From the IMG/VR virus record IMGVR_UViG_2872698443_000002: a stretch of 35,230 nucleotides of DNA. The stretch is one strand, 5' to 3'. Under the pieces are notes generated by a model. It saw only the letters and a list, made by a program, of their open reading frames with translations. It was not told the DNA's origin and made no database searches. Origin of the DNA: a virus (taxonomy: Duplodnaviria > Heunggongvirae > Uroviricota > Caudoviricetes). The translations under genes and the position numbers were made by a program. Positions 1 to 34,533 of the stretch are shown here, piece after piece (the first letter of the stretch is position 1; every line of letters begins with the position of its first letter).

Positions 1-1032
1 TCAATCGCGTCTCAGCTGGGGTAAGCGAGACATCTTGGCGGGTTGATAAGCTATAGTGATCAAGAACTGAGAATACTTGAACCAATTCTCTAGAATCCCT
101 TCACCATATATCAAAATTTTATCTTCTATAGGGAAGTACAAGTTTACCACTTCATTTCTGCAAGTATCCAAGAAGGCGTAGGTTATCTCTTCTAAGGATT
201 GCAGTGATTCGTACAGAGTGCCAAAATCATAAAATGGTGAATAAACTTGGTATTTATTATAACTATCATTTATTACAAATGACTTTTTATAATGAAATCC
301 ACCTAAACACAACAGTTTACAAGTTTTTTCATAAATAATCATAACTCCTACAAATATTCTCATCTTTGTTGTGCAAAGTTCCTCTGTAGGATGTATTTGA
401 TTTTCACTCTCGGATAATTGCTTGAGTCTTGCGTTGATTTCTACCCAACATTTGTGTAAATCAATAACAAATTGCTCATTAATATCTAATTGTTGAGAAT
501 CATCAGGCGTAGATTGTGGGTATGCTTTTCTATATAATTCTTGTGGATGTTTTATAAAATGTTGGTAGATTGCTTCAGCTTGAGCTTCCTGAACCGGGTA
601 GTAGCTGCCTATTCTTTTTCCTTCGATTTTTTTATATAAATCAAGATGAAATTTCATGTGGTTGTAATATAAATCTACCCTGTTTTTCCTTTCTGCCTCT
701 GAGATCTGTTTTTCTGTTTGTTTGGTTCTGTGTAGGTTGTTTACTATTGAAACTAAAGGTACTGCAGATGCAAGGATGAGTAATGGTAATTTCGAGATAT
801 CTAAAAATCTCTCATAACCGTGACTTGTAAGACTAAAAGAGTGTATTTTATCTATCCAGACAAAAGAACCAAAGTAAAGGCTGGTGAATAAAGGTAGGCC
901 TATTGCAGCCCAGAACAAGGGTTGTTGGAACAAGCTTCTATGATCGAGAACATAAAGTCGATATTTTATAAATAAGAATATACAACCTAATAAAACGGAT
1001 AGGTACATAAATGTGCTAATGCTTTTTTCCAT
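1..1032 (-). CDS. hypothetical membrane protein; AT-rich cargo gene immediately downstream of int
   Basis: 343-aa ORF. The first ~100 aa carry three hydrophobic helix-like stretches, followed by a ~240-aa soluble region with no motif I recognise. Its ATG starts 2 nt after the int stop (tgaTAATGg). Visibly more AT-rich than the phage backbone. Confidence 0.6.
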   Translation of the reverse strand: MEKSISTFMYLSVLLGCIFLFIKYRLYVLDHRSLFQQPLFWAAIGLPLFTSLYFGSFVWIDKIHSFSLTSHGYERFLDISKLPLLILASAVPLVSIVNNLHRTKQTEKQISEAERKNRVDLYYNHMKFHLDLYKKIEGKRIGSYYPVQEAQAEAIYQHFIKHPQELYRKAYPQSTPDDSQQLDINEQFVIDLHKCWVEINARLKQLSESENQIHPTEELCTTKMRIFVGVMIIYEKTCKLLCLGGFHYKKSFVINDSYNKYQVYSPFYDFGTLYESLQSLEEITYAFLDTCRNEVVNLYFPIEDKILIYGEGILENWFKYSQFLITIAYQPAKMSRLPQLRRD

Positions 1033-6822: not shown

Positions 6823-9237
6823 ATGAGCCATGATGATATGAACAACTGCAGCGGCTTTAACGAGGCCGCCGCAGCATTCTCATGGAACAGCCCGAAAAAG
6901 GCCATTAACCCTTATCTGGACCCGGCGGAAGTTGCGCCGGTTTCTGCGCTTTCAAACCTGATCACTCTGTACGCTGCCGATAACGAGCAGGAACAACTGC
7001 GCCGCGAGGCACTGAGTGATCAGGTCTGGGAGCGTTATTTCTTTAATGAATCCCGTGATCCTGTCCAACGCGAAATGGAGCAGGATAAGCTCATTAGCCG
7101 GGCAAAGCTGGCGCATGAGCAGCAGCGTTTTAATCCAGATATGGTCATTCTGGCGGACGTCAATGCCCAGCCTTCCCATATCAGCAAGCCGCTGATGCAA
7201 CGTATTGAATACTTCAGCAGCCTGGGCAGGCCAAAGGCTTATTCCCGCTATTTGCGTGAGACGATTAAGCCATGTCTGGAACGACTGGAGCATGTACGCG
7301 ACAGTCAGCTATCCACTTCTTTTCGCTTTATGGCAAGCCATGAAGGGCTGGACGGCCTGCTGATCCTGCCTGAAATGAGTCAGGAGCAGGTGAAACGCTT
7401 GTCTACCCTTGTCGCTGCGCATATGAGCATGTGTCTTGATGCAGCTTGTGGCGATTTGTATGTCACCGATGACGTTAAGCCAGAAGAAATCCGCAAGACA
7501 TGGGAAAAGGTGGCAGCGGAAACCCTGCGTCTGGATGTCATCCCGCCTGCGTTTGATCAACTCCGCCGGAAAAGAAACCGCCGTAAACCCGTGCCCTATG
7601 AACTCATTCCGGGTTCGCTGGCGCGTATGTTGTGCGCCGACTGGTGGTACCGGAAATTATGGAAGATGCGTTGCGAATGGCGGGAAGAGCAGTTGCGTGC
7701 TGTCTGCCTGGTCAGCAAAAAAGCATCTCCCTATGTCAGCTATGAAGCCGTGATGCATAAACGTGAGCAGCGCCGTAAGTCGCTGGAGTTTTTTCGTTCT
7801 CATGAACTGGTGAACGAAGACGGCGACACGCTGGACATGGAGGATGTGGTAAACGCCAGCAGCAGCAACCCTGCGCATCGCCGCAATGAGATGATGGCCT
7901 GTGTTAAAGGTCTGGAGCTTATCGCGGAAATGCGCGGTGACTGCGCCGTTTTCTACACCATCACCTGTCCGTCACGTTTCCATTCCACGCTAAATAACGG
8001 CAGGCCAAACCCGACCTGGACCAACGCGACAGTAAGACAAAGCAGTGATTATCTGGTCGGCATGTTTGCTGCATTTCGTAAGGCTATGCACAAAGCCGGG
8101 TTGCGCTGGTATGGCGTGCGGGTGGCTGAGCCGCATCATGACGGCACAGTTCACTGGCACCTGTTGTGTTTCATGCGCAAAAAAGACCGCCGCGCCATTA
8201 CTGCATTGTTGCGTAAGTTTGCCATCCGTGAAGACCGCGAGGAGCTGGGCAATAACACGGGACCACGCTTTAAGTCTGAGCTGATAAACCCGCGCAAAGG
8301 AACGCCGACAAGCTACATTGCGAAATATATCAGTAAGAATATTGACGGGCGTGGTCTGGCTGGCGAGATCAGTAAGGAAACGGGGAAATCCCTGCGTGAT
8401 AACGCTGAATACGTTAATGCCTGGGCGTCTCTGCATCGTGTTCAGCAATTCCGCTTCTTTGGCATTCCGGGGCGTCAGGCTTACCGTGAACTGCGATTGC
8501 TGGCTGGTCAGGCGGCAAGGCAACAGGGTGACAAAAAAGCAGGTGCGCCGGTACTGGATAACCCGCGCCTTGATGCCATTCTGGCTGCTGCTGATGCTGG
8601 TTGTTTTGCCACCTACATCATGAAGCAGGGCGGCGTACTGGTTCCCCGCAAATATCACCTCATCAGAACCGCTTATGAAATCAACGAAGAGCCAACCGCC
8701 TATGGCGATCACGGTATTCGTATTTATGGCATCTGGTCACCCATTGCAGAGGGCAAGATCTGCACTCATGCAGTGAAGTGGAAAATGGTTCGTAAGGCCG
8801 TTGACGTTCAGGAGGCGGCAGCCGACCAGGGCGCTTGCGCCCCTTGGACTCGTGGCAATAACTGTCCCCTTGCTGAAAATTTGTACCAACAAGGGAAAGA
8901 CAAATCAGCTGATGGAGATACCAGAACGGATATCACCCGCATGGATGACAAGGAGTTGCACGATTACCTGCACAGTATGAGCAAAAAAGAGCGCCGGGAA
9001 CTGGCAGCAAGGTTACGCCTGGTGAAACCGAAACGGCGTAAAGACTACAAACAGCGAATTACAGACCATCAGCGACTGCAGCTCGTGTATGAACTGAAGT
9101 CCAGGGGATTTGATGGCAGCGAGAAAGAGGTCGATTTACTCCTTCGCGGCGGCAGTATTCCGTCAGGAGCAGGCCTGCGTATCTTCTATCGGAACCAGCG
9201 TTTGCAGGAAGATGATAAGTGGCGAAACCTGTATTAA
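6823..9237 (+). CDS. A: replication initiation endonuclease gpA (rolling-circle, HUH class)
   Basis: 804 aa. Contains an HUH-like motif (VHWHLLCF) and a downstream tyrosine motif ([14 protein letters not shown]). Position after the early operon matches P2/186 gene A. Confidence 0.9.
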
Positions 9238-9389: not shown

Positions 9390-9578
9390 ATGCAGGACTA
9401 TTTTTTGGAGTCTTTGAAGCTCCAGCGCATTGATTTTTTTCTTAAGCTTGTAGCGGCTAGTGAGTGTAGTGATGAAGAGAAGGGGCTGGCTCTGCAGTGG
9501 GTTTCTGAACTGACAGATGAACTCATGGCAAAAATCAGAACCCACGAATACAACCGCTCAATGGATGTCATCAGCTGA
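9390..9578 (+). CDS. tum-like SOS antirepressor, N-terminal portion (possibly one half of a split tum)
   Basis: 62-aa ORF directly downstream of the LexA box. Size and position fit the N-terminal half of a 186 Tum-like protein. Confidence 0.45.
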   Translation: MQDYFLESLKLQRIDFFLKLVAASECSDEEKGLALQWVSELTDELMAKIRTHEYNRSMDVIS

Positions 9579-9588
9579 GGTGACTTTT

Positions 9589-9822
9589 ATGCGCATTGAA
9601 ATAATGATCGATAAAGAGCAGAAGATTAGCCAGTCTACACTGGACGCCCTTGAATCCGAGCTTTACCGCAATCTGCGCCCCCTGTATCCCAAAACGGTAA
9701 TTCGTATCCGCAAAGGTAGCTCTAACGGTGTGGAACTTACCGGATTGCAACTGGACGAAGAAAGAAAACAAGTGATGAAAATTATGCAGAAGGTGTGGGA
9801 AGACGACAGCTGGCTGCATTAA
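9589..9822 (+). CDS. DinI-like protein
   Basis: 77 aa, MRIEIMIDKEQKISQSTLDALESELYRNLRPLYP...VMKIMQKVWEDDSWLH, resembling E. coli DinI (MRIEVTIAK...ETWESADDWF). RBS GAGG at 9576..9579. Its frame stays open upstream to 9517, overlapping the previous ORF. Confidence 0.8.
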   Translation: MRIEIMIDKEQKISQSTLDALESELYRNLRPLYPKTVIRIRKGSSNGVELTGLQLDEERKQVMKIMQKVWEDDSWLH

Positions 9823-10033
9823 GAAACGTTGCTGGCGTCTGAACCTGCTTCTGGCGTCAGCAAGGTTGAACCGCGAGCCTTGAGAGGCGTTAACCATAAG
9901 TAAAAAGACAGTAATCACTTGATTATCTATCAGGGCGAGACCTATGCTGCACTTTTAGTTATAACTCATAATGTATTGAAATTATTAGAATATATGTCAT
10001 TCTTAAAATGTGTATGCTTATCAAGGAGCAAGA

Positions 10034-10906
10034 ATGAAACGTGGCATTGTAGCTAATCCTAATGAAATGAGTTTTCATAGAAATAATAGTACGGTCTATC
10101 TTGGGGCAGGTTTAACTGAGCAGGATATTAATTATTTCTGCTTTTACTGGGATGATGTGGTTATTCTAGATAGTGAAAATATTCACTCGATTGTGCCTAA
10201 AGAAAAAGAATTATTAGATAATGGGGTATTACGTAGACCTATTATGAAACATGATGGTATGCTGAATATCCAAGACTTTCCATTTTTATATACGGAATTT
10301 CAGTTGCAGACATTGGATGAATTCAGGAAGAACGAGCCTGCTACTTATTGGCACTTTCATCAAACAGGGGAAAATTTAATATATGATAAAGAACAGAAAA
10401 CGGCCCTTCAGTTGAGATTGGAGTTGTTTAATGTTCTGAGAATTCCTGATAAAGATGCTCATATAGAAGATATATTACGTTTTAAAGATGATTGTCAGGA
10501 TGATCTTAATGCGTTACATGAGTACTTAGAAAAACTGTATACTGAAGTCCTTTATTCTAGAGACCCTAATCTAACGAGGGCTAAAAATTTTTCTTTATTA
10601 CAAGAGGCTGTAGTTAATCTTGATAAAGCTATCGAAGGGAAATGGAGAAATCCTATCAGAATGGGAGTCAAAGCCAATCCAGAAGTAGATGGTGGGCAGG
10701 TTATGGAATTTTTAAAACCGTTGTACCATGCTGCTATTGCTGGTTATTCAGGCGGTATTATTCCCGGTATGGTTACAGCCTTGGCAACCGCAATTCCAAG
10801 TTTTATAAAAATCCAACCAGAATGGGTGGGCTTTAGAGATAAGGGGCCTAAAGAATTAGCTTATCTTACCAAAGCAACGCATAAGGGGTTGATTAAGAGA
10901 GCTTAA
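10034..10906 (+). CDS. hypothetical protein; AT-rich cargo ORF in the A-to-cos variable region
   Basis: 290 aa from ATG 10034 (RBS AAGGAG 6 nt upstream; an upstream GTG at 10010 is also possible). Visibly AT-rich. C-terminal glycine-rich hydrophobic segment AAIAGYSGGIIPGMVTALATAIPSF. No catalytic motif recognised. Confidence 0.6.
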   Translation: MKRGIVANPNEMSFHRNNSTVYLGAGLTEQDINYFCFYWDDVVILDSENIHSIVPKEKELLDNGVLRRPIMKHDGMLNIQDFPFLYTEFQLQTLDEFRKNEPATYWHFHQTGENLIYDKEQKTALQLRLELFNVLRIPDKDAHIEDILRFKDDCQDDLNALHEYLEKLYTEVLYSRDPNLTRAKNFSLLQEAVVNLDKAIEGKWRNPIRMGVKANPEVDGGQVMEFLKPLYHAAIAGYSGGIIPGMVTALATAIPSFIKIQPEWVGFRDKGPKELAYLTKATHKGLIKRA

Positions 10907-21913: not shown

Positions 21914-22511
21914 TCTGCTGCCACCGGGTTCAACTTCACTGGAGCGCCGACTGGCGCAAACCTGTAGCGGGATTTCTGATTTGCAGGTACCGCTGCGTGA
22001 CTTGTGGAATCCGGCTACCTGTCCGGTCAGCTTCCTGCCTTATCTCGCCTGGGCGTTCTCTGTGGATCGCTGGGACGAGGGCTGGACAGAAAGCGTCAAA
22101 CGCCAGGTAGTGAAGGATGCTTTTTATATTCATCAGCATAAAGGAACCACCAGTGCCGTGCGGCGGGTGGTGGAACCGTTCGGATTCCTGATCCGCATTA
22201 TTGAGTGGTGGCAGACCGGAGAAACACCGGGCACGTTTCGCCTGGATATCGGCGTGCAGGACCAGGGCATCACTGAAGATACCTATCTGGAACTTGAGCG
22301 ACTGATAAGCGATGCCAAACCATGTAGCCGCCACATGATCGGCATGTCCATCAATCTGCAGACCAGCGGCCCGCATTGGGTGGGAGCCGCCAGCTATCTT
22401 GGCGAAGAAATCACGATCTATCCGTATATCAACGAAACGATTATTTCCGGTGGCACCGCGCATGAAGGCGGGGCGGTCCATGTTATTGACACAATGAGAG
22501 TGAATCCATGA
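21906..22511 (+). CDS. I: baseplate/tail protein gpI
   Basis: 201 aa, overlaps the J end and the H start. Confidence 0.85.
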   Translation: MNSLLPPGSTSLERRLAQTCSGISDLQVPLRDLWNPATCPVSFLPYLAWAFSVDRWDEGWTESVKRQVVKDAFYIHQHKGTTSAVRRVVEPFGFLIRIIEWWQTGETPGTFRLDIGVQDQGITEDTYLELERLISDAKPCSRHMIGMSINLQTSGPHWVGAASYLGEEITIYPYINETIISGGTAHEGGAVHVIDTMRVNP

Positions 22512-24031
22512 GCACAAAATTTTATACCCTGCTGACGGATATTGGCGCGGCGAAACTTGCCAGCGCCGCCGCGCTCGGTGTGCCGCTAAAAATTACCCAT
22601 ATGGCGGTCGGCGATGGCGGTGGAGTATTGCCAACGCCGGACGCAAAGCAGACGGCACTGGTAAATGAGAAACGCCGGGCTGCGCTGAATATGCTTTATA
22701 TCGACCCGCAGAACAGCAGCCAGATTATTGCCGAACAGGTGATCCCTGAAAACGAGGGCGGTTGGTGGATACGTGAAGTGGGCTTGTTTGATGAGTCCGG
22801 GGCATTGATTGCCGTGGGCAACTGCCCGGAAAGCTATAAGCCGCAACTGGCTGAAGGTAGCGGGCGCACTCAGACCGTGCGCATGGTGCTGATTACCAGC
22901 AGCACGGACAATATCACCCTGAAAATCGACCCTGCTGTAGTGCTGGCAACCCGCAAGTATGTGGATGACAAGGCACTGGAGCTGAAGGTGTACGCGGATG
23001 ATCAGATGGCAAAACATCTTGCCGCACCGGACCCGCATTCACAGTACGCGCCAAAAGCCAGCCCGACATTTACCGGAACCCCCAAAGCGCCAACGCCAGC
23101 GGCGGGGAATAATACCACGCAGGTTGCGACCACTGCGTTTGTACAGGCGGCACTGACGGCCCTTATTAATGGTGCGCCAGCCACGCTGGACACGCTGAAA
23201 GAAATAGCCGCAGCCATTAACAATGATCCGAATTTCAGTACCACCATTAACAATGCGCTGGCACTAAAAGCACCGTTGTCGAGTCCGGCACTCACCGGAA
23301 CGCCAACAGCCCCCACGGCGGCGCAGTCGGTCAACAATACACAGATTGCCACTACGGCTTTTGTGAAATCGGCGATTGCAGGAATGGTGGGTTCTGCACC
23401 TGCTGCACTGGATACACTGAACGAACTGGCGGCGGCACTGGGGAATGATCCGAACTTTGCCACGACAATGCTTAATGCGCTGGCAGGTAAACAACCGCTG
23501 GACAATACGCTTACCAATTTGAGTGGAAAGGATGTGGCTGGTCTTCTCGCATACCTTGGTTTGGGAGAAGGTGCTCCAGCTATTGGCGTTCCGTTCTTCT
23601 GGCCGTCCGCCGCAATGCCAGATACCGTAATCGAAAGCTGGTCCGGCATGGTGTTTTTGAAGTTCAACGGCGCGAAATTCTCTGCCACTGATTACCCTGT
23701 GCTGGCGAAAGTGTTTCCTTCGCTGGTATTACCTGAAGCCCGCGGTGATTTCATTCGTATCTGGGATGATGGTCGTGGTGTAGATAGTGGACGTGGATTA
23801 CTTAGTACGCAGTCTGACCTGATGAAACAATTTACTTTGCAATACTACGGTCCTTCTGCTGGTACTGGAACAAGAATGGTTTTCGCCCTCCAGAGTAATG
23901 CGAACGGCATATATACGAGTGGTATTAGTCAGAATGATGGTAGTGGCACCGCTGCGGCTTTTAATGTACCAGGCGGCACCGAAACACGCCCACGTAACAT
24001 TGCATTCAACTTTTTAGTAAGGGCTAAATAA
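22508..24031 (+). CDS. H: tail fibre protein gpH (constant N-terminal part plus currently expressed variable C-terminal cassette)
   Basis: 507 aa. Contains two tandem ~57-aa repeats (...SPTFTGTPKAPT...NDPNF / ...SPALTGTPTAPT...NDPNF). A gix-like crossover site lies inside the gene at 23544..23569. Confidence 0.85.
   Translation: MSTKFYTLLTDIGAAKLASAAALGVPLKITHMAVGDGGGVLPTPDAKQTALVNEKRRAALNMLYIDPQNSSQIIAEQVIPENEGGWWIREVGLFDESGALIAVGNCPESYKPQLAEGSGRTQTVRMVLITSSTDNITLKIDPAVVLATRKYVDDKALELKVYADDQMAKHLAAPDPHSQYAPKASPTFTGTPKAPTPAAGNNTTQVATTAFVQAALTALINGAPATLDTLKEIAAAINNDPNFSTTINNALALKAPLSSPALTGTPTAPTAAQSVNNTQIATTAFVKSAIAGMVGSAPAALDTLNELAAALGNDPNFATTMLNALAGKQPLDNTLTNLSGKDVAGLLAYLGLGEGAPAIGVPFFWPSAAMPDTVIESWSGMVFLKFNGAKFSATDYPVLAKVFPSLVLPEARGDFIRIWDDGRGVDSGRGLLSTQSDLMKQFTLQYYGPSAGTGTRMVFALQSNANGIYTSGISQNDGSGTAAAFNVPGGTETRPRNIAFNFLVRAK
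23544..23569. repeat. invertase crossover site, left (TTCTCGCATACCTTGGTTTGGGAGAA), inside H
   Basis: 26-bp imperfect dyad. It matches the reverse complement of the 25624..25649 site at 18 of 26 positions, including the central ACnTTGGTTT, and the codon phase is identical in both. Confidence 0.6.
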
Positions 24032-24624
24032 TGAAACCTGTTTTTGATAAAAATGGGCTGGCTACAGTGCCGGGTGATATGCGTTGTTTTTATTATGATG
24101 CAGTAACGTCTGAATATACTGGCTGGTCTGATGAATATATTAATACTGGTGTAAGTATGCCCGCCTGTTCCACTGGTATTGACCCGGGCGAATACATTCC
24201 GGGGAAAGTGGCAGTATTTACGGGTAAGGGATGGAGCCATGAAGAAGACCACCGCAATGAGACTGCTTACTCAATCGAAAATGGCGCAGCTGTTACAGTG
24301 GATTATATCGGTGCCATCAAAGACGCTTATGTCACGCTTTCACCGTTAACGCCATACGATAAATGGGATGGTGAGAAATGGGTGACAGATACTGAGGCAC
24401 AGCATAGTGCCTCAGTAGACGCGGCAGAAGCACAGCGCCAGTCGCTGATTGATGCTGCAATGGCTTCCATCAGTCTGATTCAACTGAAATTGCAGGCCGG
24501 GCGGAAGCTGACGCAGGCAGAAACAACCCGACTTAACGCCGTGCTGGATTACATTGACGCGGTGACGGCAACAGATACCAGCACCGCGCCGGATATCATC
24601 TGGCCTGAACAGCCGGAGGCGTAG
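24031..24624 (+). CDS. G: tail fibre assembly chaperone gpG (Tfa), expressed orientation
   Basis: 197 aa directly after H. Its C-terminus (...DYIDAVTATDTSTAPDIIWPEQPEA) resembles that of the convergent tfa copy. Confidence 0.8.
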   Translation: MKPVFDKNGLATVPGDMRCFYYDAVTSEYTGWSDEYINTGVSMPACSTGIDPGEYIPGKVAVFTGKGWSHEEDHRNETAYSIENGAAVTVDYIGAIKDAYVTLSPLTPYDKWDGEKWVTDTEAQHSASVDAAEAQRQSLIDAAMASISLIQLKLQAGRKLTQAETTRLNAVLDYIDAVTATDTSTAPDIIWPEQPEA

Positions 24625-25030
24625 GCCATTCAATATCTGGAGCACTGGAAATATCAACCATTTCCAGTGCGTCCAGATAATCAAACCAGGCGTTCAAAAG
24701 TGCTTCTTCATCTGGCTTGATGCGTTTGAGCGCCAGTCTTGTCCGTAGCATCTCTGTTTCCGATTTCACTTCTGATATCAGAAATACTTTTTTGACTTCC
24801 GCCTGATGCACCAATTCCTCATGGGTAGGCAGAGTGACATTCACCCAGGCAGGTCGACCTTTGACACTACCGAGTTCTTTTCCTTCCGGAGCCGGTTTCA
24901 TCCAGTATTTATCACGCTCTGAATCCGTCAGTTTAACGATATCGTCCGGCCATGTTCCGGCGGCGATATAGCCGTCTTTCATATCCAGAGGATAAAACGC
25001 CAACGTTGTGGCTGAGAAGCACATATCCAT
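24596..25030 (-). CDS. alternative tail fibre assembly chaperone (tfa'), silent orientation
   Basis: 144 aa, convergent with G with 3' ends overlapping; C-terminus (...DYLDALEMVDISSAPDIEWPTPP) is related to G. Confidence 0.7.
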   Translation of the reverse strand: MDMCFSATTLAFYPLDMKDGYIAAGTWPDDIVKLTDSERDKYWMKPAPEGKELGSVKGRPAWVNVTLPTHEELVHQAEVKKVFLISEVKSETEMLRTRLALKRIKPDEEALLNAWFDYLDALEMVDISSAPDIEWPTPPAVQAR

Positions 25031-25032
25031 AA

Positions 25033-25677
25033 TTAAAATCCTATCGCTAGCCAGGTGGTGGCGTTATTATCGGGAAGGAGCACTCTGTCTGATGTGTTGC
25101 TTAACACGCAAATCTGTGTGGCATTAAATCCGACATTCGTTATAGCATTAGCTGTCCACACTGATGTCGTTTGTCCGCCGCCCGGCGAAGACTCGCCGAC
25201 AAACAGTGGTGGTCTTGTGAAAGCCACCGGGAATTTTACGTAGACATCTGTTGGTGTAATCTCTGATAGCCCCCACTGTATAATCATGCCGGACGGTAAC
25301 TTCTGATATCCATTAGTTGACGGTGAACTACCAAAATCAGCAGGTAGCCCGCGCACCAAATCGGCATCAAGCCCTGACCCGGAACCATCAACCTGAAGCA
25401 GTTTTGTCAGTATTGCCTGCGCCGTTACCTGTTCTTCAAGAGCAAGACTTCCTCCTTTGTTTTGCAGATATACGTATTTTGCGGCACCGTCGACTTTAAA
25501 AGCGATAGCAAATTGTTTCTTCTGTTCATCATATGCCAGCCAAAGACTATCCTCTGGCCTGCCAGACTCAAACACGAAAGTCGAGAATCTGTTATCTGTC
25601 TTATCTCTCTTCAGGTTCAGTAATTCCGGTAAACCAACGTTTATGAAAATGCAGAGATAACGGCTAACTGGCATCAT
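25033..25677 (-). CDS. alternative tail-fibre variable C-terminal cassette (promoterless, silent orientation)
   Basis: Reading frame open through the crossover site. Sequence after the site (...IFINVGLPELLNLKRDK...) parallels H at its crossover (...LLAYLGLGEGAP...). The functional part is about 25033..25636; residues upstream of the site are read-through only. Confidence 0.65.
   Translation of the reverse strand: MMPVSRYLCIFINVGLPELLNLKRDKTDNRFSTFVFESGRPEDSLWLAYDEQKKQFAIAFKVDGAAKYVYLQNKGGSLALEEQVTAQAILTKLLQVDGSGSGLDADLVRGLPADFGSSPSTNGYQKLPSGMIIQWGLSEITPTDVYVKFPVAFTRPPLFVGESSPGGGQTTSVWTANAITNVGFNATQICVLSNTSDRVLLPDNNATTWLAIGF
25624..25649. repeat. invertase crossover site, right (TTCCGGTAAACCAACGTTTATGAAAA), gix/hix-like
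   Basis: Closely resembles Gin/Hin-family recombination sites (compare gix TTCCTGTAAACCGAGGTTTTGGATAA); inverted relative to the site in H; about 55 bp upstream of the invertase gene. Confidence 0.65.
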
Positions 25678-25704
25678 CCCCGGTTTTTATTCAGGGGATT
25701 GATC

Positions 25705-26271
25705 ATGCTTATTGGCTATGTACGCGTGTCAACAAATGACCAGAACACCGATTTGCAACGTAATGCACTGAACTGAGCGGGATGTGAGCGGATTTTTGAG
25801 GACAAAATCAGTGGCACTAAGTCCGACAGACCGGGACTGAAAAAACTGCTCAGGACATTATCGGCAGGTGACACTCTGGTTGTCTGGAAGCTGGACAGGT
25901 TGGGGCGCAGTATGCGGCATCTCGTTACGCTGATAGAAGAGCTGCGCCAGCGTGGCGTGAATTTCCGAAGCCTGACTGACAGTATTGATACCAGTACCCC
26001 AATGGGCCGTTTCTTTTTTCATGTCATGGGGGCCCTGGCTGAAATGGAGCGCGAACTGATAGTTGAACGTACCAGGGCGGGGCTGGCTGCAGCTCGCGCC
26101 AAAGGCAGAGTAGGTGGACGCCGTCCTAAGTTGATCACCGAACAGTGGGCACAGATTGGACGTTTACTCGAGGCCGGAGAATCAAGACAGCGTATTGCAC
26201 TGATTTTTGATGTAGGTGTTTCCACAATTTATAGAAAATTTCCGGCAAATAAGAGCAATGAATCCCCCTGA
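25705..26271 (+). pseudogene. Gin/Pin/Hin-family serine DNA invertase with in-frame TGA at codon 24
   Basis: MLIGYVRVSTNDQNTDLQRNALN-stop (TGA 25774..25776), then the same frame continues AGCERIFEDKISG...LVVWKLDRLGRS...FRSLTDSIDT...GRFFFHVMGALAEMERELIVERT... to 26271. This is a full-length invertase apart from the single stop, which falls where Gin/Hin have a Cys/Ser codon. Confidence 0.8.
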
Positions 26272-26319
26272 ATCAGCATTATGTTGATTATCCCTGCAAG
26301 CAGACAAATACCGTCATTT

Positions 26320-26337
26320 TGTATGAATAACGGTACA
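26320..26337. promoter_or_regulatory. Ogr-type late-promoter site (TGT-N12-ACA) upstream of FI
   Basis: TGTatgaataacggtACA, centred about 86 bp upstream of the FI start. Confidence 0.5.
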
Positions 26338-26413
26338 ACTGCGATTAGCTGTTTGTCAGGCACAATCACTTCAACATAGGGCGAAGCCTAATCCAATCAG
26401 GAGGTTCGCCACT

Positions 26414-27586
26414 ATGGCTCAGGATTACCACCACGGGGTGCGCGTTGTTGAAGTCAACGAAGGCACCCGATCCATTACCACGGTGAGCACCGCCATCGTG
26501 GGTATGGTCTGCACGGGCGATGATGCCGATGCAAAAATGTTTCCTCTTAATAAACCCGTGCTGATCACTGATGTGCTGACTGCCAGCGGTAAAGCGGGTG
26601 AGTCCGGTACTCTGGCCCGTTCGCTGGATGCCATCGCTGACCAGGCAAAACCCGTGACCGTTGTTGTGCGTGTGCCGCAGGGTGAAACGGAAGACGAAAC
26701 CACGACCAATATCATCGGCGCAGTGACTGCTGAAGGTAAAAAAACAGGTATGAAAGCCCTGTTATCTGCCCAGTCACAGCTCGGCGTTAAACCGCGCATT
26801 CTCGGCGTGCCAGGCCACGATAACAAAGCCGTTGCGACTGAGTTGCTGAGCGTGGCGCAAAGCCTGCGTGGGTTTGCTTACCTGTCAGCGTATGGCTGCA
26901 AGACGGTACAGGAGGCGATCACTTACCGTGAAAACTTCAGCCAGCGCGAAGGGATGCTGATCTGGCCTGACTTTACGGGCTGGGACACGGTGCTGAATGC
27001 CGAAGCAACGGCATATGCCACCGCCCGTGCGCTCGGTCTGCGCGCCAAAATTGATGAGCAGACCGGATGGCACAAAAGCCTGTCCAACGTGGGAGTGAAC
27101 GGTGTCACCGGAATTTCTGCTGATGTGTTCTGGGATCTGCAGGACCCGGCAACCGATGCAGGTCTGCTTAACCAGAACGACGTTACCACGCTTATCCGCA
27201 AAGACGGTTTCCGCTTCTGGGGTTCCCGCTGTCTGAGCGATGACCCGCTCTTTGCCTTCGAAAACTACACCCGCACGGCGCAGGTACTGATGGACACGAT
27301 GGCAGAAGCGCACATGTGGGCAGTGGACAAACCGCTGAATCCGTCGCTGGCCCGCGACATTATCGAAGGTATCCGCGCCAAAATGCGCAGCCTGGTCAGT
27401 CAGGGGTATCTCATTGGTGGTGATTGCTGGCTGGACGAGTCGGTGAACGACAAAGACACTCTGAAAGCCGGGAAACTCACTATCGACTACGACTACACGC
27501 CAGTGCCGCCACTTGAAAACCTGATGCTGCGTCAGCGCATCACCGATCAGTACCTGGTGAATTTCGCCAGCCAGGTCAGCGCGTAA
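26414..27586 (+). CDS. FI: contractile tail sheath protein gpFI
   Basis: 390 aa, first gene of the F operon; size as P2 FI. Confidence 0.9.
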
Positions 27587-27595
27587 GGGGACAAC

Positions 27596-28111
27596 ATGGC
27601 TTTACCACGCAAATTAAAACACCTGAACCTGTTTAACGACGGGAACAACTGGCAGGGGATCGTTGAGTCGCTGACGCTGCCGAAATTCACCCGCAAATAT
27701 GAGAAGTATCGCGGCGGCGGAATGCCGGGGGCAGTGGATGTGGATCTGGGGCTTGATGACAGTGCTCTGGACACAGAATTTTCCATTGGTGGTACTGAAC
27801 TGCTGCTGTTTAAGCAGATGGGCAAAGCCACGGTGGATGGCATCCAGCTGCGCTTTACTGGCTCTATCCAGCGTGACGATACCGGGGAAGTGCAGGCTGT
27901 GGAGCTTGTGGTGCGAGGACGTCACAAAGAAGTGGATTCCGGCGAGTGGAAGACGGGCGAAAGCAACACCACCAAAGTGACCAGTACCAACAGCTACGCG
28001 AAGCTGACCATCAATGGTGAGGTGCTCTATGAAGTGGACCTTATCAACATGGTGGAAATTGTGGACGGTGTGGACCTGATGGAAGCGCACCGCAACGCCC
28101 TCGGCCTCTGA
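27596..28111 (+). CDS. FII: tail tube protein gpFII
   Basis: 171 aa immediately after the sheath gene. Confidence 0.9.
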   Translation: MALPRKLKHLNLFNDGNNWQGIVESLTLPKFTRKYEKYRGGGMPGAVDVDLGLDDSALDTEFSIGGTELLLFKQMGKATVDGIQLRFTGSIQRDDTGEVQAVELVVRGRHKEVDSGEWKTGESNTTKVTSTNSYAKLTINGEVLYEVDLINMVEIVDGVDLMEAHRNALGL

Positions 28112-28165
28112 TGTATCTGAACGGCGCGGGATACCGCGCCAGAACCCAATTTACAGGACAATAAA

Positions 28166-28468
28166 ATGAGCGATAAGCAGACTGAAAAGACCATTCAACT
28201 GGATACCCCCATCATGCGCGGTAAAACAGAAATTACCGAAATTGTGCTGCGTAAACCGCAGTCCGGTGCGCTGCGCGGTATACGCCTGCAGGCCATTATG
28301 GATATGGATGTGAACGCGATGATGACCGTGATCCCCCGCATTTCCAGTCCGGCACTGACCGCACAAGAAATTGCAGAGATGGACCCGGCAGATCTCACCG
28401 CTATGTCGGTTGAGGTTGTCACTTTTTTGTTGAAGAAGTCGGTGCTTGCCGGTTTACCGACAGCCTGA
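28166..28468 (+). CDS. E: tail assembly chaperone gpE
   Basis: 100 aa; contains the T-TTT-TTG slippery site near its 3' end. Confidence 0.8.
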   Translation: MSDKQTEKTIQLDTPIMRGKTEITEIVLRKPQSGALRGIRLQAIMDMDVNAMMTVIPRISSPALTAQEIAEMDPADLTAMSVEVVTFLLKKSVLAGLPTA

Positions 28469-28602
28469 CGGTTGACGATCTGGTGGCTGATATCGCCACC
28501 ATCTTTCACTGGCCGCCATCCGTTACTGACGTTATGCCGCTGACCGAAGTGCTGGAATGGCGGTATAAAGCGATTCAGAGAAGCGGGGCTAACGATGAGT
28601 GA
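28166..28602 (+). CDS. gpE+E' frameshift-extended tail assembly chaperone (programmed -1 frameshift near 28429)
   Basis: The -1 frame after TTTTTTG is open and reads ...FVEEVGACRFTDSLTVDDLVADIATIFHWPPSVTDVMPLTEVLEWRYKAIQRSGANDE, ending at a TGA (28600..28602) that overlaps the T start codon. Confidence 0.7.
28423..28429 (+). promoter_or_regulatory. slippery heptamer T-TTT-TTG for the E/E' -1 translational frameshift
   Basis: Six consecutive T followed by G, in X-XXY-YYZ phase with the E frame. Confidence 0.7.
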
Positions 28603-31600
28603 TAATAACCTGCGCCTGCAGGTCATTCTTAATGCGGTTGACAAACTCACCCGCCCATTCCGTGCTGCACAGGCCAGTTCGAAAGAGCTGGCTGGCGCAA
28701 TCAGAAACTCCCGTGACGCATTAAAGCAACTCAATCAGGCGGGTAACAGCCTGGAAAAATTTCGCAAGCTGCAGGCCGATAACAAAAAGTTAGGCGACAG
28801 GCTGAACTATGCCAGACAGAAGGCAAATTTGCTTAGTTCTGAGCTGGAAGCGATGGAACAACCATCACAACGGCACCTTGTGGCTTTAGGTCGGCAAACG
28901 CTGGCAGTCCAACGCCTGGAAGAACAACAAAAATATTTGCAGAAGCAAACGGCGCTTGTGCGTGCAGAACTGTACCGGGCGGGAATTTCTGCGAAAGATG
29001 ATGCGGGAGCAACTGCCCGTTTAGCCCGTGAAACATCACGTTATAACCAGGAACTGTCGAAACAGGAGGCGCGGCTGAAGCGACTGGGGGAAGCTCAGCG
29101 CAGGATGAATGCAGCGCGTGCCAGTTATGCCCGTTCGCTGGAGGTGCGCGATCGCATCGCAGGAGCCGGAGCCACCACCACGGCGGCAGGGCTGGCAATG
29201 GGGACGCCAGTGATGGCGGCAGTAAAAAGCTATACCAGCATGGAAGATGCCATGAAAGGTGTGGCAAAGCAGGTCAATGGTCTGCGTGACGATAATGGCA
29301 ACCGCACTGCACGTTTTTATGAAATGCAGGATGCCATCAAAGCTGCCAGCGAACAGTTGCCGATGGAAAACGGTGCGGTGGACTTCGCTGCACTGGTTGA
29401 AGGTGGTGCGCGTATGAACGTTGCAAACCCTGACGACAGCTGGGAGGACCAGAAACGTGACCTGCTGGCCTTCGCCAGTACGGCAGCAAAGGCGGCAACA
29501 GCCTTTGAGCTGCCAGCGGATGAACTGTCAGAAAGTCTGGGGAAAATCGCCCAGCTCTACAAAATCCCTACCCGCAATATTGAACAGCTCGGTGATGCGC
29601 TGAACTATCTGGATGATAACGCCATGTCGAAAGGGGCAGACATCATTGATGTCATGCAACGCCTGGGCGGTGTGGCTGATCGTCTGGATTATCGTAAAGC
29701 GGCGGCGCTGGGTTCCACCTTCCTGACACTGGGCGCTGCGCCAGAGGTTGCAGCCAGTGCAGCAAACGCGATGGTGCGTGAATTGTCCATTGCCACCATG
29801 CAGAGCAAGAGTTTCTTTGAAGGGATGAATCTGCTGAAACTCAATCCTGAAGTGATTGAAAAGCAGATGACGAAGGATGCGATGGGAACCATCCAGCGCG
29901 TGCTGGAGAAGGTGAACGCACTGCCGCAGGATAAGCGCCTGTCTGCCATGACCATGTTGTTTGGTAAAGAGTTTGGCGATGACGCAGCGAAACTGGCAAA
30001 CAACCTTCCGGAACTGCAGCGCCAGCTAAAACTGACAGCGGGCAATGATGCGCTCGGTTCCATGCAGAAAGAATCCGACATCAACAAGGACTCACTTTCT
30101 GCTCAGTGGTTGCTGGTCAAAACCGGAGCGCAGAACACCTTCAGCAGCCTGGGCGAAACGCTGCGCCAGCCGCTGATGGATATTCTGTACACGGTGAAAA
30201 GCGTCACAGGGGCGTTGCGTCGCTGGGTGGAAGCTAACCCGGAACTGACAGGCACACTGATGAAAGTAGCCGCTGTGGTGGCTGCCGTTACCGTGGGCCT
30301 CGGCACCTTAGCGGTGGCGCTGGCTGCAGTGCTGGGGCCGCTGGCAGTGATCCGTCTGGGATTCTCTGTGCTGGGTATCAAAATGTTACCTTCCGTTACG
30401 GCAGCAGTAACTCGAACCAGCAGCGCGTTGTCCTGGCTGGCTGGCGCACCACTGGCACTGCTGCGACGCGGGCTTGCTTCATCGGGCAACGCCGCAGGTT
30501 TACTTACTGCGCCGTTGTCGTCTTTGCGCCGCACGGCATCACTGACGGGAAATGTCCTGAAAACGGTAGCAGGTGCGCCGGTTGCACTTGTGCGGTCTGG
30601 ATTATCCGGGTTACGTGCGGTTGCTGTGATGTTTATGAATCCACTGGCAGCACTACGCGGTGGACTGGCTGCCGCAGGCGCGGTGCTGCGTGTGCTGGCA
30701 TCCGGTCCGCTGGCGATGCTGCGCGTTGCCCTGTATGCCGTATCTGGTCTGTTAGGTGCTCTGCTCAGTCCGATAGGTCTTGTGGTTACTGCACTGGCGG
30801 GCGTGGCGCTGGTTGTCTGGAAATACTGGCAACCCATCACCGCATTTCTCGGTGGCGTGGTGGAAGGATTCAAAGCGGCGGCAGGTCCCATCAGTGCTGC
30901 ATTCGAACCGCTTAAGCCCGTGTTTCAGTGGATTGGCGACAAAGTACAGGCGCTGTGGGGCTGGTTTACTGATCTGCTGACGCCCGTAAAGTCGACCTCT
31001 GCCGAACTGCAGAGTGCAGCGGCAATGGGGCGGCGATTCGGGGAGGCACTGGCGGAAGGGCTGAATATGGTCATGCATCCGCTGGACTCCCTGAAATCCG
31101 GCGTTTCCTGGTTGCTGGAGAAACTCGGCATTGTCAGTAAAGAGGCCGCAAAGGCAAAACTACCGGAAAGCGTGACGCGTCAGCAACCTGCGACGGTGAA
31201 TGCAGACGGTAAAGTGATGATGCCATCGGGTGATTTTCCGTCATGGGGATATGGCTTTGCGGGTATGTATGACAGCGGCGGCTATATCCCGCGTGGGCAG
31301 TTTGGCATCGTCGGTGAAAACGGGCCGGAAATTGTTAACGGCCCGGCAAACGTGACCAGCCGGAGAAATACAGCTGCACTGGCTGCCGTTGTCGCCGGAA
31401 TGATGGGCGTTGCTGCCGCGCCAGCAGAGCTTCCACCGTTGCATCCTTTGGCGCTTCCCGCGAAAGGCGGTGAAGCGATGGTGAGTCGTGCAGCTACTGT
31501 GCCGCCCATTTACCGGATTGAAGCACCGACGCAGATCATCATCCAGACACAGACAGGACAAAGTGCGCAGGATATTGCGCGGGAGGTGGCCCGCCAGCTT

Positions 31601-33545: not shown

Positions 33546-33569
33546 AACCTGCTACGGCAGGTTTTTATT
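33546..33569 (+). terminator. rho-independent terminator after ogr
   Basis: AACCTGC-TACG-GCAGGTT hairpin followed by TTTTATT. Confidence 0.6.
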
Positions 33570-34047
33570 CATCTGGGATCTCACCCGTTTCAAGAAAATG
33601 TATAAAGCCAGGCTCATCTATGATGATTGTGCCTTTCATCCTGGCTGCCGATACTTTTGATGGGCCTGCATTGTAACCGCAACAGAGCATCTGAAGGCTT
33701 TGGGTTACAGAGGTTCTTACCGTTAATCCTTGTTCATTCGCCTTATCAACCAATCTTTCTTTATCTGCTTTCTTAAATCCGGTGAAACACACATCGAATG
33801 TATTTTTTTTCGGACCAGACTGCTTAGTGAGATGTGAGTAGTTTTCGGGGAGGAATGACGCGCATTCCTGAATGGCTTGTTCTGGTGAATCGTACTGTTT
33901 AAGAATGCGGTCTTTTCGGAAGGTTTTTATTCGATCGGTGTTCTTACAAATGCCCTGTATATGATTTTCGCTATAACTGATGCTCTGTATTGAGTGAACT
34001 CCGATACGACCATTTGCATTGATGTAAACAAAGTGAAGTTCTTCCAT
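33565..34047 (-). CDS. hypothetical two-domain protein: N-terminal WYL-like segment plus C-terminal BRCT-like domain; AT-rich cargo gene next to the attachment site
   Basis: 160 aa with RBS AGAGG 6 nt upstream. The C-terminal ~75 aa align position-by-position with the BRCT domain of NAD-dependent DNA ligase. The N-terminus (...NGRIG...GICKNTDRIKTFRKDRI) resembles the GyC...R.FR.DRI signature of WYL beta-barrels. Confidence 0.65.
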   Translation of the reverse strand: MEELHFVYINANGRIGVHSIQSISYSENHIQGICKNTDRIKTFRKDRILKQYDSPEQAIQECASFLPENYSHLTKQSGPKKNTFDVCFTGFKKADKERLVDKANEQGLTVRTSVTQSLQMLCCGYNAGPSKVSAARMKGTIIIDEPGFIHFLETGEIPDE

Positions 34048-34170: not shown

Positions 34171-34533
34171 TGGTGGAGCTGGCGGGAGTTGAACCCGCGT
34201 CCGAAATTCCTACATCCTCGGTACTACATGCTTAGTCAGTCTTTACATTCGCTTGCCAGCTGCGGACGGACACGCCACTAACAAACTAGCCTGATTAAGT
34301 TTTAACGCTTCAACCCCAGGCAGGGCTTCCACGCGATCTCTTTTGGGTTTGACCTCTCTTGATCCCCGTCCTAAGAGCGGAGGCTAGGGAGAGAGGGCTC
34401 TAAGCAGGTTATTAAGCTGCTAAAGCGTAGTTTTCGTCGTTTGCGACTATTTTTTGCGGCTTTTTACGAGGCCAACCGCCCCTCGGCATGCACCTTGGGT
34501 TTCGCAAATCCCGTCGAATCCAGAATCAGCCCC
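34171..34533 (-). ncRNA. ssrA: tmRNA (SsrA)
   Basis: The reverse complement begins GGGGCTGATTCTGGATTCGACGGGATTTGCGAAACCC and ends ...GGTTCAACTCCCGCCAGCTCCACCA. It contains the ANDENYALAA tag-coding region (...GCAAACGACGAAAACTACGCTTTAGCAGCTTAA) and the tRNA-like 3' end. Length is 363 nt. Confidence 0.95.

Follow-up and report, generated by a model that had tools for sequence, protein, structure and literature searches.

We identified a nonsense allele of a Gin-type DNA invertase gene in a P2/186-like prophage and found the tail-fibre segment next to it in both orientations among genomes that carry the allele. It is a genuine, inherited TGC to TGA change within a switch resembling the G segment of Mu, and we consider it on balance probable that the segment is still flipped in trans by a second invertase of the Gin family. 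The window, as we call the whole stretch of 35,230 nucleotides that was analysed, corresponds to a prophage with an integrase and a CI-type repressor at its left end, P2-type capsid, lysis, baseplate and tail genes, and ogr at its right end. It adjoins ssrA (tmRNA, 34171..34533, minus strand) and smpB and is integrated at ssrA.

Several other genes of the prophage were noted alongside. An ORF of 343 amino acids (1..1032, minus strand) lies directly downstream of the integrase gene on the same strand with a gap of 2 nt; it has no match in Pfam, NCBIfam or PADLOC, its only full-length match is PHROG 17460 (unknown function), and it may be cargo that the prophage carries at this end. In relatives, DUF262, TIR, SEFIR, retron or P-loop genes occupy a variable cargo spot that separates the replication gene from the portal gene; the window has there genes for a DinI-like protein (9517..9822, plus strand) and a DUF6236 protein (10010..10906, plus strand), and we take the former to be reminiscent of the Tum antirepressor of phage 186. 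Between ogr and ssrA, a protein of 160 amino acids (33565..34047, minus strand) is encoded, and many E. coli genomes conserve it where prophage and host sequence meet. Its sequence is similar to the BRCT-like C-terminus of NAD-dependent DNA ligase (PHROG 2561, E 2e-77) and shows a weak match to the PADLOC candidate PDC-S48 (E 2e-7).

The invertase gene and the elements that define its defect are the following.

25705..26271, plus strand: Gin/Cin-type serine DNA invertase gene of 188 codons, broken at codon 24 (identified by translation, Pfam and comparison with Gin chains)
25729..25731, plus strand: Ser9 codon TCA, the catalytic serine of the RVST motif, 5' of the TGA (aligns with Ser9 of Gin chain 4m6f)
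25774..25776, plus strand: in-frame TGA at codon 24; position 25776 has A in place of the C of intact alleles
25912..26271, plus strand: residual ORF of 119 amino acids, whose ATG is codon 70 and which gene callers report for copies with a disrupted N-terminus

The translation of 25705-26271 (plus strand) reads MLIGYVRVSTNDQNTDLQRNALN-stop-AGCERIFEDK..., and after the TGA the frame is open to the normal stop at 26269..26271. With Cys restored at codon 24, the protein matches the Pfam Resolvase domain (E 2.2e-53), which is the catalytic domain with the RVST serine, and the HTH_7 DNA-binding domain at residues 138-181 (E 1.1e-14); it also aligns with two chains from crystal structures of Gin, over residues 1-184 (E 5e-92). 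The Gin sequence aligned to the region of the stop reads ...RNALVCAGCEQIFEDK.... Identity in tblastn searches was 79% to P1 Cin and 74% to D108 Gin. The nearest intact allele, in E. coli FDAARGOS_1248, differs from the window at a single position of the ORF, 25776, where C in place of A gives a TGC Cys codon instead of TGA. Members of the Gin/Hin/Cin/Pin family have an uninterrupted two-domain reading frame, which the TGA interrupts in the window; the gene is a member of the family by descent and a null allele under standard decoding. A first-pass annotation had described a full-length Gin/Pin/Hin-type invertase with an in-frame TGA at codon 24, and translation, Pfam domains and the Gin alignment bear this out. 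Its remark that family members have Cys or Ser at this codon was also confirmed, with Cys in Gin and P88 and Ser in Cin, ENT90, SJ46 Pin and phi80 PinL. Elsewhere the residue is Arg (JK004), Lys (AhyVDH1) or Asp (gamma-delta resolvase).

Normal decoding of the TGA allele would yield only a peptide of 23 residues. The earliest in-frame restarts after the TGA are a TTG at codon 66 and the ATG at codon 70, both beyond Ser9, so that reinitiation cannot give an active enzyme, as the first-pass annotation had already argued from the position of the catalytic serine upstream of the stop. A scan for promoters and terminators around the invertase gene gave nothing above shuffled expectation.

The TGA allele is rare but inherited. 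It is present in thirteen datasets, consisting of the chromosome CP029687.1, seven Logan run assemblies, four NCBI assemblies and one ENA metagenome. CP029687.1 (assembly GCA_003443795.1) is the source chromosome and matches the window exactly; no gene was called at its invertase locus. Further carriers were found using the residual 119-aa ORF as a query. This product occurs on 22 to 24 contigs, and the identical allele with Cys24 occurs on 303 contigs, which makes it about 14 times commoner. In nine of ten distinct contexts of the 119-aa product, the whole invertase ORF including the TGA is identical to that of the window, and a query with the alternative fibre ORF led to one more TGA carrier. 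An exact-pattern scan for the TGA allele had given no match in species-representative genomes, IMG/VR or JGI metagenomes, and the TGC version had given 93 matches in such a scan. Likewise, no copy of a 61-mer with the TGA was present in the 537 RefSeq complete E. coli genomes having this type of gene, a set that does not include the CP029687.1 assembly. From the zero counts the allele was first read as private or a possible error, a reading overturned by the matches to the 119-aa product; the early zeros reflect the contents of the three collections. Full-length relatives from viral contigs all have Cys at codon 24 (83/83), a count that provides no independent evidence because the loci had been retrieved with a 34-mer containing TGC.

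An error of sequencing or assembly at 25776 in the source genome, which had been raised as a worry before, would agree with the lack of an exact copy in the first scans of genome, viral and metagenome contig sets and with the absence of the source assembly from the RefSeq complete E. coli set. The same base is, however, found in twelve other independently generated datasets, which excludes a sequencing error and leaves this explanation a probability close to zero. About 3.5% of the possible single-base changes in the invertase ORF create a stop, so that chance alone should produce an allele of this kind somewhere in thousands of sequenced copies. The nonsense event is real but statistically unremarkable.

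The DNA on which an invertase would act comprises the following elements.

22508..24031, plus strand: tail-fibre gene H as now assembled, 507 amino acids (Pfam Phage_tail_fib N-terminal domain, E 2.5e-65)
23544..23569: left gix-like crossover site of 26 bp, TTCTCGCATACC TT GGTTTGGGAGAA, with central TT at 23556-23557, inside H
23558..25635: invertible segment of 2,078 bp, reverse-complemented with identical flanks in contigs L122 and L119
24031..24624, plus strand: tail-fibre assembly gene, 197 amino acids, paired with the current end of H (Pfam Caudo_TAP, E 7e-28)
24596..25030, minus strand: alternative tail-fibre assembly gene, 144 amino acids, which would be expressed once inverted (Caudo_TAP, E 8e-26)
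25033..25635, minus strand: alternative C-terminus of H (Pfam Gp53-like_C, E 2e-11), with a frame open across the right site to 25677
25624..25649: right crossover site of 26 bp, TTCCGGTAAACC AA CGTTTATGAAAA, with central AA at 25636-25637

The constant part of H extends over 22508..23557 and its variable C-terminus lies within the invertible segment; homology of H to relatives ends at 23562-23571. The right site is located 68 bp before the invertase ATG, occurs as a single copy in the window and aligns with Mu gixR (TTCCTGTAAACCGAGGTTTTGGATAA). The core AWACCWWSGTTT has two matches in the 35-kb window, the left and the right site, where 0.05 would be expected by chance. The two sites are imperfectly symmetric and stand in inverted orientation, and their central dinucleotides, TT on the left and AA on the right, are reverse complements, as inversion requires. 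According to the coordinates, inversion would join the alternative end in frame at codon 350 of H, giving a fibre of 550 amino acids. A 550-aa H with Gp53-like_C is called in both L119 and L122, where it is followed on the plus strand by the 144-aa assembly gene, and both fibre ends fit the constant part. The DNA substrate is intact; this applies to the two sites, the two fibre ends and the region of the predicted enhancer.

It had been proposed that the switch is probably locked in its present orientation unless another invertase acts in trans. Locking is contradicted by the genomes carrying the TGA, and the proviso of another invertase becomes the most likely explanation. The predicted inversion product was built from the left flank of the window, the reverse complement of 23558..25635 and the right flank. 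A Logan assembly (L122, run ERR4635580) equals this product with no mismatch in 18,288 bp and carries the TGA. Its match is perfect only for a crossover in 23555-23562 and 25630-25637, which includes the central dinucleotides, so that both orientations occur with breakpoints at the cores of the sites. Since the window and L122 both have the TGA and four later markers, the inversion postdates the nonsense mutation. The junction sequence common to both sites is only TTGGTTT (7 bp), which argues for site-specific rather than homologous recombination.

Orientations were scored from the E. coli genome set and from exact protein matches, as the invertible segment of the window was found in none of 95 viral loci checked for orientation. 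Five TGA carriers have the segment type of the window, two of them in its orientation (CP029687.1 and GCA_044147995.1) and three in the opposite one (ERR4635580, GCA_904809655.1 and GCA_904809715.1). TGA carriers of a second lineage, adjacent to ybjL, also occur in both orientations, with L117 and L123 in one and L120, L125, L116 and L121 in the other; L117 and L120 are 99.96% identical over 10.6 kb of the right flank and 99.95% identical over the inverted segment. As a control with an intact Cys24 enzyme, the sister E. coli strains ZF31 and ZF34 have flanks that are 100% identical and the segment, 98.9% identical to that of the window, in opposite orientations. On these comparisons the switch is evidently not locked, and the segment has kept inverting after the TGA arose. 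In ZF31 and ZF34 (L097 and L098, ~4.58 Mb), the fibre gene is given as partial pseudogenes in both RefSeq records and there is an internal duplication of 208 bp in the segment; this annotation may be an assembly problem arising from mixed orientations in the culture.

Two rearranged TGA carriers deserve separate description. L116 (Logan ERR13116584) and L121 (ENA metagenome ERZ28658485) hold, in two independent datasets, a defective derivative of the TGA prophage, in which the stretch that begins at the end of H and extends to the start of the tape-measure gene is inverted relative to the rest and ~5.5 kb from the lysozyme gene to H is deleted, with junctions near positions 7719 and 12986 of the locus. 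This rearrangement was considered as a product of the invertase and rejected, as its junctions show microhomology of 3-7 nt (for example TCGGCAA) and no gix-like core.

The history of the allele can be followed from linked changes. The window and FDAARGOS_1248 differ at nine positions in 5.77 kb (0.16%), and at this divergence one difference in the ORF of 567 bp is an ordinary expectation. Four changes, 26344 C>A, 27094 C>A, 27733 G>A and 27832 T>G, occur only in the sublineage integrated at ssrA (the window, L119, L122 and L109), and TGA carriers of the ybjL-adjacent lineage keep the ancestral bases at these sites. The TGA is thus older than the four changes. A TGA block (25631..28897) has an identity of 99.85-100% among carriers, against only 95-98% for their left flanks, and it is linked to at least three different types of invertible segment and to two integration sites. 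A near-identical block on divergent flanks, segments and sites indicates that it moved by recombination among related prophages.

Such movement is also the basis for an alternative account of the two orientations, in which the invertase is dead, no flipping occurs and the TGA block has been copied by homologous recombination into prophages of either orientation. The diversity of segment types, integration sites and left flanks linked to the block agrees with this account. The comparison of the window with L122 argues against it, as their flanks are identical over 16.2 kb including the four lineage changes and a precise inversion is the only difference. A single inversion is a far more parsimonious explanation than a conversion tract whose two ends are both untraceable, and we regard a locked switch as very improbable.

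Since the TGA arose, the ORF after the stop has stayed intact in the thirteen datasets, with G270A (Leu90), in two of them, as the single change, which is synonymous. About 0.7-1.5 changes would be expected in the ORF over the divergence of the carriers and one is seen, which is too few to infer selection on the ORF after the stop. A contig of the ybjL lineage (L118; GCA_902840855.1, CADGHZ010000016.1) has an independent amber mutation, CAG>TAG at Gln13, and an intact Cys24. Two different early stops in near-identical genes suggest that loss is recurrent and tolerated, or favoured. Among the 83 close relatives, three have a frameshift and one has lost the stop codon, and loss of this invertase is evidently recurrent in the genomes compared. 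Most likely, the TGA allele is a tolerated loss of function that has spread between related prophages by recombination. Other N-terminally shortened products of close invertase alleles are more widespread, namely P0004 (119 aa) on 92 contigs and P0003 (89 aa) on 171.

Transversions are frequent among the substitutions specific to the lineage (at 10 of 15 sites that are private or nearly so), five being C>A or G>T. The sites 25776, 26344 and 27094, which are nearest to the invertase, are all C>A; the other sites listed are 18603 and 31878. Because 26344A and 27094A are common to other carriers of the ssrA lineage, they are real changes. The excess of transversions could be chance or a mutation bias of the oxidative-damage type in the host lineage. 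Upstream of the tail sheath gene there is a dyad, TGT-N12-ACA (26320..26337), which is consistent with an Ogr-dependent late promoter element of P2-like phages; the 26344 C>A change lies 7 nt downstream of it.

The base mutated in the TGA codon lies in a predicted element at the 5' end of the invertase gene.

25723..25794: predicted Fis-dependent recombinational enhancer at the 5' end of the invertase gene (by homology to the P1 annotation)

In the GenBank record of P1, the enhancer of Cin-mediated inversion of the C segment is annotated at nt 19-90 of cin, and 55 of 72 positions are identical in 25723..25794 of the window. The enhancer of Hin is 65 bp long, lies ~100 bp from hixL and has ATTTA and TAATG between two Fis sites (PMC3798978). 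In the window, the corresponding A/T-rich segments are GATTTG (25751-56) and TAATG (25760-64), and the distance of the stretch from the site is likewise ~100 bp. Given the extent of the predicted enhancer, base 25776 falls inside it, and appears to adjoin the outer conserved G of the distal Fis core (G-N13-C, 25775..25789). Relatives have C or T at 25776 in our alignment. Continued inversion suggests that the mutated base in the predicted enhancer is tolerated.

The catalyst of the inversions, which we infer rather than observe, is most likely a trans-acting second Gin-family invertase, by analogy with known cases. The constant fibre gene is joined at a 26-bp site to either of two C-termini, each with its own assembly gene; the TGA allele would leave the prophage with no functional local invertase and with substrate DNA that stays invertible; and a second Gin-family invertase, encoded by another prophage or a cryptic prophage in the host genome, would flip the segment in trans. 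Action in trans is well established for this family: the P segment of e14 is inverted by PinQ of the Qin prophage, and gin mutants of Mu are complemented by e14 (PMC12529663 and its reference 65). Suitable enzymes are common in the host species. At least two homologous invertase loci were present in 14 of 30 complete E. coli genomes, the 30 being the best matches to the locus, and at least one was present in 53% of all complete E. coli genomes.

A leaky stop would require no second invertase. UGA would sometimes be read by Trp-tRNA, giving a little C24W invertase and flipping in cis at a lower rate. Readthrough of UGA by Trp-tRNA in competition with RF2, measured with a reporter in E. coli K-12, is ~2% at 37 C and 4% at 25 C (PMC10570021), which is in favour of this explanation. 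The residue at position 24 varies in the family (Cys, Ser, Arg, Lys, Asp), so that Trp may be tolerated. The ORF past the TGA is undamaged in all thirteen datasets, with one synonymous change, and this would also fit a gene still used through readthrough, but the divergence is too small to reveal purifying selection. Against a leaky stop, the TGA is derived and rare, with 22 contigs against 303 with Cys. To our knowledge AAC UGA GCG is not a leaky stop context, which speaks against leakage as well. In programmed readthrough the stop is conserved in relatives, and here TGA is absent from the 537 RefSeq genomes. The enzyme acts as a tetramer, and a few per cent of the protein should lower the rate far more than proportionally. 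The contigs, a few dozen of very low divergence, show at least two independent flips. For these reasons, namely the need for a tetramer, the number of independent flips and the derived and rare state of the TGA, action in trans is favoured over readthrough, and we consider a leaky stop possible but rather unlikely.

A variant of the leaky stop that we hold to be clearly less plausible would make the opal codon a throttle. Readthrough dependent on conditions would give a trickle of C24W invertase and rarer switching linked to the state of the cell, and the allele would be kept by selection, for instance to limit harmful recombination at gix sites in hosts with several such prophages. It would explain the undamaged frame in every carrier and the spread of the allele across backgrounds with a flipping segment, and UGA readthrough in E. 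coli does vary with temperature and cAMP (PMC10570021). If readthrough were true, the allele would be a natural case of a stop codon that tunes the rate of a DNA switch, which would be of moderate interest for research on phase variation. Recoding of the UGA as selenocysteine at the former Cys codon was also considered. The only sign of it is a TGC codon changed to TGA, a pattern typical of Cys/Sec pairs. Shuffled sequences fold as well as the 67 nt that start at the UGA (z = -0.48), the region has neither a SECIS nor any other Rfam family, and TGC alleles have an identical downstream sequence. Without a SECIS-like fold or an Rfam match, selenocysteine recoding was ruled out, and its likelihood is the smallest of all the explanations weighed here.

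Returning to inversion in trans, a broken invertase gene does not imply a frozen switch. Predictions of the host range of prophages should therefore weigh the set of invertases of the whole genome and not the adjacent gene alone. The analysis also indicates that public run assemblies allow nonsense alleles in mobile elements to be checked without the original reads, and that an allele can falsely look private when curated collections are scanned for exact patterns.

Among the closest known systems, the G segment of Mu with Gin has the same layout. The order is the same, with the constant fibre part, a site, a variable end with its assembly gene, the inverse pair, the second site and the invertase. 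The annotated boundary of the G segment lies 67 bp before gin, and the site in the window lies 68 bp before the invertase ATG. The 26-bp sites align, the protein matches Gin structures over 184 residues, and residue 24 of Gin is Cys. Unlike Mu, the switch is located in a P2/186-like prophage, between a fibre assembly gene and the tail sheath gene, its segment measures 2.1 kb instead of ~3 kb, and its invertase has an opal codon at residue 24. The C segment of P1 with Cin is alike in protein sequence (79% identity) and in its annotated enhancer (55/72 positions identical to the stretch in the window). In P1, however, Cin is intact with Ser at position 24 and cin precedes the segment, and the enhancer in the window is predicted from homology only.

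The Pin invertases of cryptic prophages of E. coli (PinE of e14 and PinQ of Qin) provide the precedent for the invertase of one prophage flipping the fibre segment of another. Those cases are experimental and concern K-12, whereas in the window the trans-acting enzyme is a predicted one and would act on a P2-like prophage that seems to be complete and whose null allele is a natural one. The pinL gene of phi80 (L106) is decayed in a similar way, with a premature stop in the helix-turn-helix DNA-binding domain, and adjoins a fragment of a tail-fibre pseudogene. In contrast to the phi80 locus, damage in the window is limited to the invertase, and the sites, fibre ends and assembly genes are intact and still recombining. 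The invertase of the Erwinia phage ENT90 (L102) is open from a GTG across the whole stretch aligned by tblastn, and its annotation covers an internal part only, as 'DNA invertase-like protein'. The intact allele of the invertase studied here is annotated in hundreds of genomes. The window thus belongs to the already known Gin/Cin/Pin family of switches, with a known type of decay and with a known form of rescue as its likely explanation.
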